A DNA stretch of 28,423 bases from a virus (Duplodnaviria > Heunggongvirae > Uroviricota > Caudoviricetes): positions 1-28,423 of the IMG/VR virus record IMGVR_UViG_2537562173_000011; one strand, given 5' to 3'. Under the pieces are notes generated by a model. It had not been told where the DNA came from, did no database searches, and worked only from the letters and a program-made list of their open reading frames with translations. Numbering within the stretch: the stretch's first letter is position 1; each line of letters opens with the position of its first letter. Positions 2,307 to 8,788 of this stretch are shown here, in pieces. Made by a program: the position numbers and the translations under genes.

Positions 2307-5252
2307 TTAGTGCTTCCCTTCTATTAAGTCTAACCTAGCTTTTATTCTTTCTATTTCTCTGCGCTGCCATGCTGCCTCGATATAGAATAAGAGATCAGGT
2401 CTGACCCCCCATCTAGATCCTGCTGGCGTTATTTCAACGCGCTCAATGATGTCTTCCATTACCATCACTGGATTATCATCCTCATCAACAATGATGCTCC
2501 CGTCATTATCAGTCAGCGGCATTTCCCTTTGGCCAGTAATGACGTCATCATATACTGCGGGATAATCGTCATAGCAAAGAAAGGCATAGCGGCATGTTGT
2601 GCTTTCTTCTTCCATGAGTCCGTGAGAAATAAGAACATCACGAAGTTGCTGCGCGATTACACCATGATGTATCCTCGCCCCTTCTTCCCCCTTTATAGCG
2701 ACAGCGTTCAGCCATTTATAAGCGATATACCTGACGTCACCCCAGGCATCCAGCAATGTTTCGTCAGGAGAGACCGGCTCTGTCTTTAATGTTCCGTCAC
2801 TGGTAACCACAGGATTGGAGCCAAGATAAACTATCGAGAACCTGTTTCCCGGACCACCAAGAGCATTTACATTATCAAGATAAGGTTTAACATCTCCGTT
2901 CTCAAAAAGATGTTCGAGTGCGTTATATACCGCGCGACGTGGAGTACTGCTTCTGGAACCATGCAACGTTATCATTGCACCATCTGCTGAAGACGTTGTT
3001 TCACCGCCGCTAACGATTAATCTCTGAGCGGTAACATCATCAGACGGTACTTTCTTCGCAATAATGGCGTAATTACCCTCAAGTTTGACTTCCGCGCGAA
3101 CTTGTCCTGATGTACCTGCATGGACAGTCAGTGACTGGACGGCAACATCATCTGTGAAATCAACGGGTACAGGAACCGTCCTCACGCCTGACGTCGACAT
3201 AAAAGTAGGAAGCGTTCTGTTAGGAGTGGCTCCGTAGACAAAATCCCTTGAAACAAATTCTTCCTGTTTAATTTTCACCCTGAAACAATACAAATCAGCC
3301 GGGTGACCATCGTGAACATAAGGATATTTTCTGTTGTTATCCCCTATGCTCCATGGGTTTAGAAAGTCTTCCCCACCGAAAATGTAGTACAGCCAGTTGT
3401 CTTTGATACAAACTGAACCAACACCAACCGCAGAGTTAACTATTCCGCCCTGATAAATCTGATCAGTAACATTAACCCACTCTACATTATCCAGACTCCA
3501 CTCATTGACGTTAACTCTGGTCATAAATGTTCTTGGATAGTTTCCTGCATAACGGTTATCAGGTTCTCCTCCTTCCCACTCACCAAATGCGCGCTCACTG
3601 CCAAAAATAATCAGCTCATCGCCAACTTTGGCAAAAGGAAGGTTTGAGTGATGAACATTATTTGGGAAGCGAAGAGAATTCCATGATGTACCTAAATCAG
3701 AGCTTCTGTGCAATGAACTACCGGGTTGAGTACTTAATGTCCCCCTGGTCGTCAGATACAGAATGCCATCATAATATTTTACACATGGCTCAGATGCATT
3801 CGCCTCATATTCTGCAGGTATGCGTCTGCGAACAAAGCTACCAGGAGAACCGAAAGCATCAGAGAAATAGAGTATCCCAAGCTCGCGTGGACCAATATCA
3901 CCATTATGGTAGCCAACAGCAAAACTGTTATCGCTAATCGTCGCAAAACTGTGAATCTCAGTAACAGGAGTGCTTCCGTCAACAAAAGAAGGAATAGTTC
4001 CAAGACTGGTTTTTCTCCATGGTGACGAGTGAAATGATGTACCAAAACTCCAGTATCTACCCTCGTTATTCTGATCCACATCCTGGGTATTTTGCGTCGT
4101 AACTGTAAAAGTATTTTTATCAATAACAGTAGTCACCGTCATATTCCCGGTAACACCTGTAACACCAGAGTTTGAGAAGTTGACAAAATCACCAGCAAAT
4201 AATCCGTGATCAGTAATGCGAATATAAGCGACTTGCTGATTTGCTGCTTTCGTTATACCACCATAAACGCGAAGGCTGCGACTCATTGGGCGATCCCACA
4301 ACTCTGCAACCTGCAGTTTATTTCCGCTCACGGTCCGCGTCTCAATTACAGCAAAAAGGCGATTTCTGACAACCCCCATACTCATGCAGTGATAGTTAAC
4401 TGTGGGATAGTTTTCATGTAAATCTGTAAGCCATTCCGGCGTTGTCCAGGTCTTCCCGTCATCTCCTGAGCGAACCCATGCAACATGGAGGTTATTTACA
4501 CCATGGCGGTCCCCAGCCATAAAAGGCGCATAGATGACATTGTCATATACAAACGTTTTATCCTGCGTCCAGGCGTTGTACCACGGTGTATCTGTAATTT
4601 TAAATAACTCTCCCTGGATAAAATCTTCAGAAACATAAAAAAGAGGCTGACCCGGTATTCTCTCAAATAAAAAACGAGCATTTTTAAATCGACTGACATC
4701 TGGAAGAGTTGATACTTTAAAAGTAAGCCCTCGCCCATCTATCTTTTCACCACCTGTTGCAACAGAAAGTAATTCTGATAGAGCTGATGTATCATCATGA
4801 ACACCATCACCAATAGCCCCCCAACCTCTTACATCATAACTGTCTCTCCATCTTGCTATCTGAAGTTTTGGGTATTTATTCGCTCCATCTGGGTCTTCTA
4901 ATTGCTGCCGTAGTTGATCAGGATCATACTTCAGCACATTCTGGAAATAGAACTGCTGTACGCCATACGCATCGTACACAGCCATAGAATGGCCTTGCAC
5001 AGTTACGAACTTGGCAATCCGTCCGTTATATACAGGGTAACCAGCAGCGTTAATGATGATTGGTTGCGAAACAGGAACGTGAGAGCCGTCTTCGTTCTCT
5101 ACATAAACCTGAATCCGGTTTTCAGGATTTACCGGGTCAGTGTCAATTTTACCGATATAAATTTTGCCATTGGCTACGGCTTTAAAAGAACGCGCCATAG
5201 TGAAGAGTTGCGAAGGCATCGATACAATCACATTGGCTGTAATGTCTGTCAT
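2307..5252 (-). CDS. Tailspike with P22 gp9-like head-binding N-terminus fused to an endo-N-acetylneuraminidase (endosialidase)
   Basis: 981 aa. N-terminus MTDITANV...[13 protein letters not shown]...VLKYDPDQ is near-identical in pattern to the P22 tailspike head-binding domain; the remainder is consistent with K1-phage endosialidase tailspikes. Position next to ant matches P22 gene 9. Confidence 0.85.
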
Positions 5253-5308
5253 TTAATTTGCTCCAGATGCAAAGAATCGCCGCAGCATGGCCACGGTGAA
5301 TTTTGGGC

Positions 5309-5334
5309 ATAAAAAAACCCAGCCGAAGCTGGGT
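5309..5334 (-). terminator. Rho-independent terminator between ant and tailspike
   Basis: On the minus strand: hairpin cccagc-ttcg-gctggg followed by a T7 run, located between the ant stop (5353) and the tailspike start (5252). Confidence 0.55.
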
Positions 5335-5352
5335 CGTTGCGTTGGTTATCTG

Positions 5353-6255
5353 TCAGTAATTATGTACTGAAGGAGGTAATTCTTTATTCTTAAGTCTCAT
5401 CCATGCGGAAAGATTCGTTGGTCCGTCTGGCTCATTGATATCAACATCTCGTGTGTGATTGATTAAAACGTCTCTCGCCATATCGATAATACGGGAGAAC
5501 TCATAACCGCAGTCATGACATCTGCCGGAATAGTTCGATTGAATTTGTTTTAGCGCCGGATACAGTTCGCGGAATAATGCCTGTGAGCGGTTGGCATAAT
5601 CCCATAGCCATACAAGGCTGTTTGCTTCTTTTGCAGAAAGCTCGTTGGTTTTCTTCTCTTGTTTGCCGATGAACTCACCTTCAAGCACTACCCTGTGGAT
5701 GTACTCTACTGCTTGTGGTATCTGAGATGCATCAAGCTCTTCAATACTTTCCACATTGAAACGCTGATGAATCATTGCATAAGCTTCTGGGTACATTAGA
5801 TGCTTTTTGCTGACTAGCATATTTACAGCATCACGAAGCGGAGTCCTGTCATCAACAGATGTTTTCTTCCGTGCATTTGCTGCCTCTCCCTTTGTCCAGT
5901 AGTCATGCAGCACAGTAAAGCATTCTTCCTGGTACTGAATCAGTTTATCGCGGATGTCAGCACGAACTTTCTCAGGGTTGATGCTGAACAGCCATCCATT
6001 TAACTTCTTCAAAGGAAGGCAGAGTAGCTTACGAAGCTTACCATCAGCGGCAACCATGTTCATATGAACACAGTTGAATTTGCTAATCTGCTTCATGAGT
6101 TTTGTTTGCTGCGTTGACCAGCTCATTCCGAGGTTTTCAACGATTGGCTTCATCGCAACATATGCAACTCCGGCAGCCATGGCGGTGATAATTTGCTGAC
6201 CGTTGAATGGCACGTAAGAGGTGTTCACTGCTTCTAAAATTGCTATACTATTCAT
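5353..6255 (-). CDS. ant: Antirepressor Ant (immI)
   Basis: Position immediately upstream of the tailspike and downstream of arc, as in P22 immI. I chose ATG 6255 ([10 protein letters not shown]...); the track's longer ORF begins at a GTG at 6321 just after an in-frame stop. Confidence 0.75.
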
Positions 6256-6487
6256 GTTGGTTTTTCTCCACGGATTTACCGACAACCGAAGCCCTGACTG
6301 TTCCAGCAGTTGGGGCTTCACTGTTTTGATTTCTTTGCCGCATCAAGCATCACTTCTGAAAACGTGCGCTTGCCACTGAATACTCTTTCTCTTCTCAATT
6401 TTTCGTTCGTGCCAAATGATTCGCCATGAACAAAATTTGGTCTTAAAATGGTAATCGCAATCTCTTTGACTACTGCATCCAAGCGAA

Positions 6488-6640
6488 TCACACCGTTACC
6501 CCCTCTCTCTTCAGGCTGTCTATCAGGCGCTTGATAACCTCTGAGTTAAACGACCTGCACTCTTCCTTTGCCCTGCTACCGATAGCATCCTTTAACGACT
6601 GCGGCATCCTTACCAAAATCTTACTTATTTCTTTCTCCAT
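6488..6640 (-). CDS. arc: Arc-like ribbon-helix-helix repressor
   Basis: 51 aa from ATG 6640 with a GGAGGG Shine-Dalgarno. Sequence ...RMPQSLKDAIGSRAKEECRSFNSEVIKRLIDSL resembles P22 Arc (GRSVNSEI motif region). Divergent from mnt. Confidence 0.7.
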   Translation of the reverse strand: MEKEISKILVRMPQSLKDAIGSRAKEECRSFNSEVIKRLIDSLKREGVTV

Positions 6641-6754
6641 GTTACCCTCCACGCAAACAACTCTTTTCGAATACAAAAGATAGCAAAGTGAGTATATCTA
6701 GTCAAAATTTTTTTGCATACACTTTGCTATCAAATTGAATACCAAAGGTGTTAT
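6641..6754. promoter_or_regulatory. Divergent immI promoter/operator region between arc and mnt
   Basis: 114-bp AT-rich spacer between divergent RHH repressor genes; contains 12-bp inverted repeats gatagcaaagtg (6679-6690) and cactttgctatc (6720-6731). Confidence 0.4.
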
Positions 6755-7003
6755 ATGGCAAAGGGTGTGTCAATTTCTCCAACTACGGTAAGAATCCCTG
6801 AATCTTTACGCGAGGCTCTTGCTGTCAGAGCATCAAAAAATGGTCGCTCTGTTAACTCCGAGATCGTCATGATTTTGCAAGCCGCGATTGATGAAGATAG
6901 GTCGCCAAAGTCAGTTGAGTCATTTGCTCAGCAAGAAGCTGATAAATTCAAAGAGGCGCTACTTGAGACGCTAAAGACCATGTATGCTAAGGATGAAAAA
7001 TAA
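6755..7003 (+). CDS. mnt: Mnt-like ribbon-helix-helix maintenance repressor
   Basis: 82 aa from ATG 6755 (SD AAGGTG). ...RIPESLREALAVRASKNGRSVNSEIVMILQAA... resembles P22 Mnt; length and divergent orientation relative to arc match P22. Confidence 0.75.
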   Translation: MAKGVSISPTTVRIPESLREALAVRASKNGRSVNSEIVMILQAAIDEDRSPKSVESFAQQEADKFKEALLETLKTMYAKDEK

Positions 7004-7539
7004 TGCTGCACACAATTCATTTCTTATGCCCTGTTAACACTGCCACTGTTGGGCAACTTCAGAACCACTGTCTCACCGCATTATCTCAAGGCGCAACTGA
7101 ATTAAATATCCATATATCAAGTCAGGGAGGGGAAACTGCTGCTGGCTTTACTGCGTATAACTTTCTTAAGTCACTCCCTGTTACCGTTAGAACTCACAAC
7201 ATAAGCAATGTTGAATCCATAGCTAATATCGTTTTCCTGGCTGGCTCAGAACGTTTCGCAAACCCATTATCAAGATTCCTGTTACATCCTCTATTATGGT
7301 GCTTTGCCTCCCCAGCCGCCGACCATGCCAGATTGAGAGAGTACGGGAAATGCCTCGATAACGATCTTGATCGCTTCGTTGAGACGTTCAATATCGACAT
7401 CGGAACCCATATTAGGTGGGCATCCCTGATAGCAGACTCGACCATTTTGGATGCTAACAAGGCTCTTGAGCATGGCATAATTAATTCCATAAAAACTGCA
7501 AGGCTGGCATCCAATCAGGCAAACTGGTGGGTTGTTTGA
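7003..7539 (+). CDS. ClpP-fold (S14-like) serine protease homolog, 178 aa, translationally coupled to mnt
   Basis: Start ATG overlaps the mnt stop (TAATG). HISSQGGETAAGFTAYNFL...ISNVESIANIVFLAGSERF...SRFLLHPLL aligns by eye to the ClpP core (INSPGGVITAG...GQAASMGAFLLTAG...RVMIHQP), with Ser, His and Asp at the catalytic-triad positions. Confidence 0.6.
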   Translation: MLHTIHFLCPVNTATVGQLQNHCLTALSQGATELNIHISSQGGETAAGFTAYNFLKSLPVTVRTHNISNVESIANIVFLAGSERFANPLSRFLLHPLLWCFASPAADHARLREYGKCLDNDLDRFVETFNIDIGTHIRWASLIADSTILDANKALEHGIINSIKTARLASNQANWWVV

Positions 7540-7566: not shown

Positions 7567-7589
7567 AAAACCCACCTGACGGTGGGTTT
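7567..7589. terminator. Bidirectional rho-independent terminator between convergent hotspot genes
   Basis: aaaaaa-cccacc-tgac-ggtggg-ttt hairpin flanked by A and T runs, between the stop at 7539 (+) and the stop at 7588 (-). Confidence 0.5.
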
Positions 7590-8004
7590 AGTCAAACATA
7601 GTGTTTCTAAAGTCTCTCGCATACCCTGCTAACACTCTCATTCTATTATGATTGTTAGCAGACATGTGAGCTACAGGATGAAAAAGAGCAATCAATGAAT
7701 GCCTGTTCTCATCAAAAAGATTTTGTGCATAAACGAGAGCGGTATTGGATGTTTTATGCCACTGCAACTTTTGCGGTGTGCTGATATCTGTGCCATTTTT
7801 TATTGGCTCAAATTTATTTTCACCAATTGCTAAATGAAGGTGCATAAGGCCTGCATCTTCAATATCAGGAGGTCGATGATAAGAGGTGTCTCTGCCAAAA
7901 TAGCTGGGCAACGTTCCCGTAGACTTGTAGATGATTTTATCATCTACAAGTGTTTGTTTTAAATCAGGAAACTCAACAAAAACCGGGGAGAAAAAAATAG
8001 TCAA
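7588..8004 (-). CDS. Hypothetical protein (138 aa if the TTG start is used), second gene of a two-gene hotspot operon
   Basis: Open frame with AGGA 5 nt upstream of a TTG at 8004; first in-frame ATG would give about 85 aa. No family recognised. AT-rich. Confidence 0.4.
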   Translation of the reverse strand: MTIFFSPVFVEFPDLKQTLVDDKIIYKSTGTLPSYFGRDTSYHRPPDIEDAGLMHLHLAIGENKFEPIKNGTDISTPQKLQWHKTSNTALVYAQNLFDENRHSLIALFHPVAHMSANNHNRMRVLAGYARDFRNTMFD

Positions 8005-8046: not shown

Positions 8047-8613
8047 TCAGTGGAAGTTACCAGAGTGAAACACACGAGTCCCGTGCTCAGCAAGCGCACG
8101 CAAACCAGCCATATCTACGGAACTATCAAAAACAACCGGAACACATGAGCGTTGTTTAATAAGACTATTCAGGTTGGTTACGGCAGATCTGGCATCAGCA
8201 ACAACGATATAGATATCTCTTGCGATCTCTTTAAAATCAGCAGAAGCTTCTTTGAATACCGATTTCATTGCCCCTTCAAGTCCTCTCAATTGATGCTCTA
8301 TCAATCGAGACTTTTCTGGTTCAATGATAGACAACACATTGTCTACATTCTCATCGGTAGCGTTTGCAAGAACACGATAAGCGTATTTCAGCATTCGAGA
8401 CAATTCTTTAATCGAAGACACCGCCTCATGAAGCTCATCATTAGCCCGTTCACTGCTGAATGAGGATTGATGGTAAGCGTGCTGAACGTTATCAGTAACA
8501 ACCACCTCACAACTGAACGCAGAAGCTTGCTGTAATAGCAAACCTATTGCGACTCCAGCTTTGGCAGCGTTCAAGCTAAACATTTCATCAATCCCATTAG
8601 TCTCATTGCTCAT
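8047..8613 (-). CDS. Hypothetical protein (188 aa), first gene of a two-gene hotspot operon
   Basis: ATG at 8613 preceded by a perfect AAGGAGG Shine-Dalgarno; predicted largely helical; no family recognised. Confidence 0.5.
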   Translation of the reverse strand: MSNETNGIDEMFSLNAAKAGVAIGLLLQQASAFSCEVVVTDNVQHAYHQSSFSSERANDELHEAVSSIKELSRMLKYAYRVLANATDENVDNVLSIIEPEKSRLIEHQLRGLEGAMKSVFKEASADFKEIARDIYIVVADARSAVTNLNSLIKQRSCVPVVFDSSVDMAGLRALAEHGTRVFHSGNFH

Positions 8614-8788
8614 ACAAACCTCCTTCTTATCGGAGATTATCAATAGCTATGCATCCATTGAATACACGCTATGCGCAATAAGTTTACGTCACGTGATATC
8701 ATTATGCAACCACCGTTCTATCACCGACTAACTTTACTCCCACTCCTATACATCATCTGGTATCCTGCGCAAAACTAAGGAGGTTGGT

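Follow-up and report, generated by a model that had tools for sequence, protein, structure and literature searches.

The window, a stretch of 28,423 nucleotides, is an E. coli K1 prophage that resembles CUS-3 and P22 (Lederbergvirus). Its positions 6256-6700 match E. coli ATCC 11775 and other K1/APEC strains at 100% identity, and the identity to phage phiv205-1 over 6150-6760 is 99.7%. The part of the prophage described here is its immI region (Table 1), in which the minus strand carries arc, then orf57, then ant, with mnt divergent on the plus strand. Pfam matches identify the products of arc and the divergent mnt as ribbon-helix-helix repressors and that of ant as a P22-type antirepressor, and these are the same flanking families as in immI of P22 and epsilon34. 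The arc gene has its own Shine-Dalgarno (SD) sequence, and the Pant-like promoter upstream of it agrees in position with Pant in P22 and epsilon34. With the ant ATG at 6255-6253 and the arc stop codon TGA at 6490-6488, the arc-ant interval occupies 6256-6487, exactly as an earlier note on this DNA had placed it, and its 232 bp are indeed larger than the 68 bp found in P22. The operon is accordingly a P22-type immI that fails in a single feature, the direct abutment of arc on sar and ant: in place of an arc standing immediately before the sar/ant leader at a spacing of about 68 bp, orf57 lies between the two.

Table 1. Features of the immI region and the tailspike gene by position in the window, followed by the small-protein cassettes found between the arc stop codon and the sar terminator, by number of contigs
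Feature	Position or occurrence	Strand	Basis or remarks
Endosialidase tailspike with P22 head-binding domain	2307-5252		
ant, antirepressor, 300 aa	5353-6255	minus	Pfam P22_AR_N (4e-45), P22_AR_C (2e-28)
Psar promoter (predicted), within the 5′ end of ant	6221-6249	plus	gapless alignment to the annotated Psar of epsilon34
sar antisense RNA	6256-6322	plus	Rfam RF00262, full length
ant Shine-Dalgarno sequence, GGAG	6269-6266	minus	within the region that pairs with sar
sar Rho-independent terminator hairpin, 14-bp stem	6288-6319	plus	terminator scan; hairpin then ACTGTTTTGATTTCTTT
orf57, 57-aa accessory gene	6318-6491	minus	ORF list; phrog_17642; annotated CDS in phiv205-1 and RefSeq
arc, Arc-family ribbon-helix-helix repressor, 50 aa	6488-6640	minus	Pfam Arc, E 5.1e-12
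Pant-like promoter (TTGACT, 17-nt spacer, TG TATCTT)	6677-6705	minus	promoter scan; consensus match only
mnt, Mnt-like ribbon-helix-helix repressor, 82 aa	6755-7003	plus, divergent	Pfam Arc 9.5e-11; phrog_2685 1.3e-31
67-aa CxxC zinc finger	at least 15 intact and at least 3 damaged contigs		no significant Pfam match
orf57 cassette	at least 8 contigs, window included		
89-aa predicted membrane / coiled-coil protein	at least 6 contigs		
73-aa protein cassette	at least 6 contigs		
74-aa zinc finger	at least 2 contigs		weak ClpX-finger match (Pfam, E 0.0015)
80-aa protein cassette	at least 2 contigs		
60-aa zinc finger	at least 1 intact and at least 1 damaged contig		ClpX-type, Pfam PF06689, E 7.6e-11
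63-aa zinc finger	at least 1 contig		weak ClpX-finger match (Pfam, E 0.2)

No Rfam family other than that of the antisense RNA sar exceeds its threshold anywhere in the window, and the match to RF00262 scores 83.9 bits (cut-off 43; E 1.8e-17) over model positions 1-68 of 68. From position -1 upstream, the complementarity of the 67-nt RNA to the ant leader is perfect and includes the ant SD, and the RNA overlaps the last 5 nt of orf57, including the orf57 stop codon. Its computed fold consists of the two hairpins expected of the family (minimum free energy -32.4 kcal/mol, z -5.24), and the second of these together with the U-tract behind it is the only terminator returned by the scan, with the true 3′ end of the RNA probably at the U-tract at 6324-6327. 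The terminator hairpin is invariant in P22, epsilon34 and a K. aerogenes locus. The extended -10 element of Psar, TGcTATACT at 6241-6249, is likewise identical in P22, epsilon34 and the window, and the predicted start of a transcript from this promoter would be 6256, one base upstream of the ant ATG. With its score, its antisense position, a Psar inside ant and two stem-loops of which the second is the terminator, the sar of the window is a canonical member of RF00262 on every criterion that can be tested on sequence. The suggestion in the earlier note that the gap holds an antisense sRNA is thus borne out by a full-length sar on the plus strand, a textbook example of an RNA that goes unannotated in most genome records.

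In P22, sar pairs with the ant leader and SD and blocks ant translation (Liao et al. 1987; Wu et al. 1987; Schaefer and McClure 1997, as cited in PMC2629481). By analogy, the sar of this prophage would repress ant translation through pairing with the leader and SD. The ant SD had earlier been described as weak, and the sequence is indeed a GGAG, 10 nt before the ATG. It is not peculiar to this locus, however, because the stretch from the ant ATG through GGAG is identical to that of P22 and the GGAG falls at the potential ribosome binding site annotated there.

The sar RNAs of P22 and epsilon34 share with that of the window the same position, antisense to the ant leader and 1 nt upstream of the ATG, as well as the Psar -10 element, the two-hairpin structure and the terminator. 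Positions 6150-6320, which cover the 5′ end of ant and sar, are 98% identical to epsilon34 and 88% identical to P22, and a query of 5300-6320 covering the ant and sar region is 97.3% identical to epsilon34. Homology to both phages extends from inside ant to about 6320 and then ends. The sar terminator directly adjoins the end of arc in P22 and epsilon34, whereas in the window it abuts the end of orf57 and overlaps it by 5 nt, and as a result of this overlap the U-tract of sar is templated by the C-terminal Lys-rich codons of orf57. The last codons of the gene, KKSKQ and stop, are the complement of the U-tract, the stop codon TGA at 6320-6318 lies in the foot of the terminator, and the spacing of 62 bp between orf57 and ant compares with 68 bp between arc and ant in P22. 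The Arc of the window is of a divergent type relative to the Arc of P22 and epsilon34, with a different N-terminal half. A separate observation concerns ant, whose frame continues without a stop upstream of the ATG, across the sar hairpin and as far as a GTG at 6321. The resulting extended ORF of 322 aa (5353-6321, minus strand) was discarded as an artefact, and the open frame is probably incidental, because the same upstream frame is open in epsilon34.

The remainder of the interval is occupied by orf57. The earlier description of the gap as ORF-free, with only very short ORFs in it, does not hold: a 57-codon ORF on the minus strand fills 170 of the 232 bp, and its GTG start is probably the reason that it escaped the first reading. 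This GTG, at 6491-6489, overlaps the arc stop codon as GTGA, and an SD-like GAGGGGG at 6505-6499 lies 7 nt upstream of the start, inside the last codons of arc. The absence of an in-frame stop across the 56 internal codons is reproduced in 1.3% of shuffles. When scored with codon frequencies trained on the long genes of the window, orf57 has a log-odds of +0.147 bits per codon against -0.12 to -0.74 in the other five frames. The neighbouring genes arc, orf138 and orf198 score 0.09, 0.11 and 0.16 bits per codon, respectively, and 0% of the off-frame 57-codon windows of real genes reach +0.147. In orf57 an open frame is thus combined with a plausible start codon and SD, and codon usage is gene-like in this frame only. 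The ORFs of 39-52 aa on the plus strand of the gap were rejected as coding candidates, with negative codon scores in all three plus-strand frames.

The earlier note also proposed that the enlarged gap might hold a longer antisense RNA or an additional regulatory site, which could take the form of sar read-through, a second plus-strand sRNA, or an extra cis-regulatory RNA or DNA site for ant. This explanation is very improbable. Some read-through of the sar terminator is possible, with a product that would be antisense to orf57 and arc, and the promoter scan finds one plus-strand promoter-like site at 6421-6449 with 9 of 12 consensus matches. However, the two promoter-like sites found, of which this is the single one on the plus strand, equal the 2.0 expected from shuffles, and the full-length sar match ends at a 14-bp hairpin with a U-tract. 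The plus-strand promoter and terminator prediction that had been recommended as a check therefore recovered the sar terminator, while the additional promoter-like site is at chance level. Positions 6323-6487 give no RNA-structure signal (folding z of 0.21 on the plus and -0.39 on the minus strand), and no second Rfam match appears even at E values up to 10. The sar RNA is of canonical length with a canonical terminator, and the remaining 170 bp or so are a protein-coding cassette. Other phages swap this same stretch for unrelated sequences whose sole common property is an intact minus-strand ORF, which argues for protein coding and not for a conserved RNA or DNA site. The note had itself held that a conserved small protein in the interval would speak against its reading, and with orf57, the predicted gene for such a protein, the ORF-free, long-sRNA reading fails. 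As the apparent intergenic gap is mostly a small gene with a GTG start, it is not to be pursued as a new sRNA locus.

Several lines of comparison place orf57 within a small and closely knit family. It matches phrog_17642 over its full length (E 1.3e-43) and is annotated, by independent pipelines, as a CDS for a hypothetical protein in phiv205-1 (QGF19908.1) and in RefSeq E. coli genomes. The hypothetical protein WP_000620145.1, at the same position in strain PA45B, has a translated sequence identical to that of the window, and orf57 is no different from this entry and phrog_17642, a family without known function. The variant of O104:H4 is not called as a gene by PGAP. Of 5,426 complete E. coli genomes, 93 contain orf57 DNA at full length and at least 95% identity, APEC O1 and O104:H4 among them. 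A prophage of K. aerogenes contains an intact 57-codon copy, 86% identical and at the same position between arc and ant, in which the GTG start is retained despite a shifted arc stop and the downstream Ant is of the KilA-N type.

Wider searches add little to this group. A word-indexed search of 5.8 billion proteins returned close relatives of orf57 only, and an exhaustive HMMER search of 1.84 billion representatives gave no credible distant homologue. The long repeat proteins P0011 to P0015 were considered and rejected as artefacts, as their scores add up over near-identical repeat units: no single-unit alignment exceeds about 27 bits, P0013 has FG-GAP-like repeats, P0015 is an unrelated simple repeat, and orf57 matches no FG-GAP Pfam model. 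Among the GTDB species-representative genomes, a peptide-pattern scan for orf57 gave 79 unconfirmed stretches and an exact degenerate DNA pattern gave 0 matches, which indicates that the gene is absent from the representative genomes at that stringency. The protein has no match in Pfam, NCBIfam or PADLOC and none in a sequence search of the PDB (best E-value 0.35), and its AlphaFold2 model is of low confidence (pLDDT 53.5), with three weak helices.

The low-confidence structure prediction, together with the confinement of homologues to a narrow group of enterobacterial prophages, is in keeping with the notion that orf57 is nonfunctional, either as a decaying remnant or as a fortuitous open frame in spacer DNA that is carried along with arc. 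The substitution pattern shows no sign of purifying selection, with 3 synonymous and 8 nonsynonymous differences between the window and K. aerogenes copies, but the resulting dN/dS of about 0.72 derives from only 11 substitutions and has no statistical power. The comparison with the O104:H4-type copy yields 1 synonymous and 2 nonsynonymous differences, again at few sites. The variants of orf57 include a C-terminal frameshift (77 aa), truncations, a 45-nt duplication and a 135-nt deletion. The deletion is found in at least three contigs (L034, L068 and L129), lies between short GATGC repeats, and leaves a 12-codon remnant of orf57 in which the coupling to arc is kept. These deleted, frameshifted and truncated variants indicate that orf57 is dispensable, and the gene may be decaying in some prophages.

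A nonfunctional orf57 is nonetheless unlikely. The 45-nt duplication and the 135-nt deletion are each in frame, the chance of the open frame is low in the shuffles described above, and gene-like codon usage is confined to the annotated frame. The gene starts and stops in the same geometry as seven other families of intact cassettes, the DNA is kept at 95% identity or more in the 93 E. coli genomes, and the copy of K. aerogenes is intact. As a separate observation, the frameshifted variants P0004 and P0006 (77 aa) read into the extended ant frame.

The cassette families are apparent from a scan of IMG/VR for the sar terminator, which listed at least 119 contigs and, with the window, made 120 sequences, of which 105 could be analysed (104 from IMG/VR and the window). 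Among the matches listed, arc abuts sar in the P22-like manner in 60 of the 105, and an insert is present in 45; 41 of these 45 inserts, again among the matches listed, are one intact small ORF coupled to arc. The intact ORFs of the slot begin 4 nt inside the arc stop (ATGA, or GTGA for orf57) and end at the same TGA at the foot of the terminator (...AAAACAG TGA AGCCCC). They belong to at least eight mutually unrelated families, among them four CxxC zinc fingers of which one is confirmed as ClpX-type. This confirmed finger is the 60-aa cassette of the AR_0118 prophage. Zinc-finger cassettes occupy the slot in the prophages of both E. coli AR_0118 and AR_0017, and phages vB_EcoP-611R6 and EC.P3 carry the 73-aa and the 89-aa cassette, respectively. 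As for orf57 being a ClpX-type C4 zinc finger itself, it has no cysteine and no match to PF06689. CxxC...CxxC mini-proteins of 60-74 aa are seen in the slot at loci L006 (1563-1745) and L008 (about 1240-1500) and in IMG/VR contigs L029, L035, L051 and L060, and the 67-aa zinc finger, the commonest finger type, is unannotated in E. coli AR_0017.

The cassettes sit behind arc genes with three different N-terminal halves and stand before at least five N-terminal types of Ant, and the cassette-bearing arcs have in common the C-terminal tail ...DSLKREG(V/I)xV, which encodes the SD. The large number of unrelated cassettes and the variety of their arc and Ant neighbours point to recombination as the means by which cassettes are exchanged, with the arc tail and the sar terminator as its two conserved anchors.

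A small ORF that lies behind a ribbon-helix-helix gene and overlaps it by 4 nt also shows the typical geometry of a toxin-antitoxin locus, and Arc has weak, sub-threshold matches to the ribbon-helix-helix antitoxins FitA and VapB. It is nevertheless extremely unlikely that arc and orf57 form a translationally coupled type II pair of a ribbon-helix-helix antitoxin and a small toxin. In Pfam, NCBIfam and PADLOC, orf57 has no match to a toxin family, and the 50-aa Arc is essentially the ribbon-helix-helix core without a C-terminal toxin-binding extension. The same Arc C-terminus precedes at least eight unrelated partners, among which are zinc fingers and a membrane protein, and in P22 it precedes none. 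One Arc tail with so many unrelated partners is incompatible with cognate toxin-antitoxin pairing, and orf57 also suffers in-frame deletions in which arc is kept. With no toxin family, no Arc extension and eight unrelated partners, this reading of the arc-orf57 pair was rejected.

The account that likely explains the arc-ant interval is that it consists of two slightly overlapping elements, both of known kinds, the canonical 67-nt sar and the protein-coding cassette orf57. In the proposed arrangement, sar would be transcribed from Psar inside the start of ant, end at its strong hairpin terminator and pair with the ant leader, and orf57 would have been inserted exactly between the arc stop codon and the sar terminator. 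The order of the operon by sequence is Pant, arc, orf57, sar (antisense) and ant. Translation of orf57 would be coupled to that of Arc on an arc-orf57-ant mRNA from Pant, a coupling suggested by the overlap of its GTG with the arc TGA and by the SD in the last codons of arc. In the P22 lysogen Pant is kept repressed by Mnt, and during infection it is Arc that turns this promoter off. A comparable circuit in this prophage would produce orf57 in an early burst with Arc and Ant after infection, before Arc shuts Pant off, and the gene could also be expressed by read-through from the late operon, which has been described for the P22 ant moron in the consulted passages of PMC2629481. The transcription, translation and timing of expression of orf57, as well as any function, are predicted here from its sequence and position. 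The best guess is that Orf57 would be a dispensable, moron-type accessory small protein that acts on a host or phage partner at an early stage.

ClpX-type fingers occur among the alternative cassettes, which invites the speculation that small proteins encoded in the slot modulate host machinery. A broader and tentative proposal, possible but rather doubtful, is that the junction of the arc stop and the sar terminator serves specifically for the exchange of single small genes, whose products would be effectors that act on host machinery, such as decoys of the ClpX domain that binds substrates and adaptors, or that modulate the Arc/Ant switch, with orf57 as a member that influences the lysis-lysogeny decision or superinfection. 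If so, the genes of the slot, being coupled to Arc, would be made in the immediate-early burst from Pant. A swappable small gene is in any case found in immI of P22-like prophages of E. coli, among them those of K1, APEC and O104:H4 lineages, and of a K. aerogenes prophage, and the gene in the slot would be co-expressed with the antirepressor. The slot cassettes are thus a concrete set of small proteins to test in the lysogeny decision, superinfection and host proteolysis.

The region between gene 16 and the tailspike is known as the hypervariable ant moron, which is in rapid flux and falls into ten types among sixteen genomes (Villafane et al. 2008, PMC2629481). Relative to the ant moron of P22-like phages as presented in the consulted passages of that paper, orf57 and its alternative cassettes are further examples of the same flux. 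The flux seen at the window is of a finer scale than that in these passages, as it is confined to a precise slot between the arc stop and the sar terminator and involves coupled cassettes of a single ORF; no description of this precise slot was found in the passages of PMC2629481 consulted. The same paper on the epsilon34 genome (PMC2629481), in those passages, has ant morons of the CUS-3 type apparently without arc. The CUS-3-like window, in contrast, has a clear Arc-family gene (Pfam 5e-12), which contradicts and corrects the older statement, as it appears there, that CUS-3-type regions lack arc. Earlier work or annotation already covers the sar RNA, orf57 and the hypervariability of the ant moron, and the precise cassette slot is a modest extra observation.

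Three further features of the window were observed outside the arc-ant interval. A hexapeptide-repeat acyltransferase ORF at 1398-2153 on the minus strand carries, at its 5′ end, a run of 15 tandem GAGTCTT heptads (2044-2148). Such repeats are the hallmark of neuO, the phase-variable polysialic-acid O-acetyltransferase gene of CUS-3-type prophages. As 7 is not a multiple of 3, the number of repeats sets the reading frame.

Downstream of mnt, a ClpP-like protein of 178 aa is encoded at 7003-7539 on the plus strand (Pfam CLP_protease, 2e-11). The ClpP-related head-maturation-protease families fall well below their cut-offs for this protein, and its gene lies outside the virion-assembly cluster. 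The start codon of this gene and the stop codon of mnt overlap (TAATG), and the protein would therefore be made together with Mnt in the lysogen. In vB_EcoP-611R6 and the AR_0118 prophage, the zinc-finger or other cassettes lie a few hundred bp from the ClpP-like gene, across the divergent promoters. Further along, positions 7588-8004 and 8047-8643 on the minus strand encode a homologue of the YafO family of type II toxins (Pfam 4e-21) preceded by a 198-aa ORF that has no family match, and the two may form a toxin-antitoxin pair inside the ant moron.
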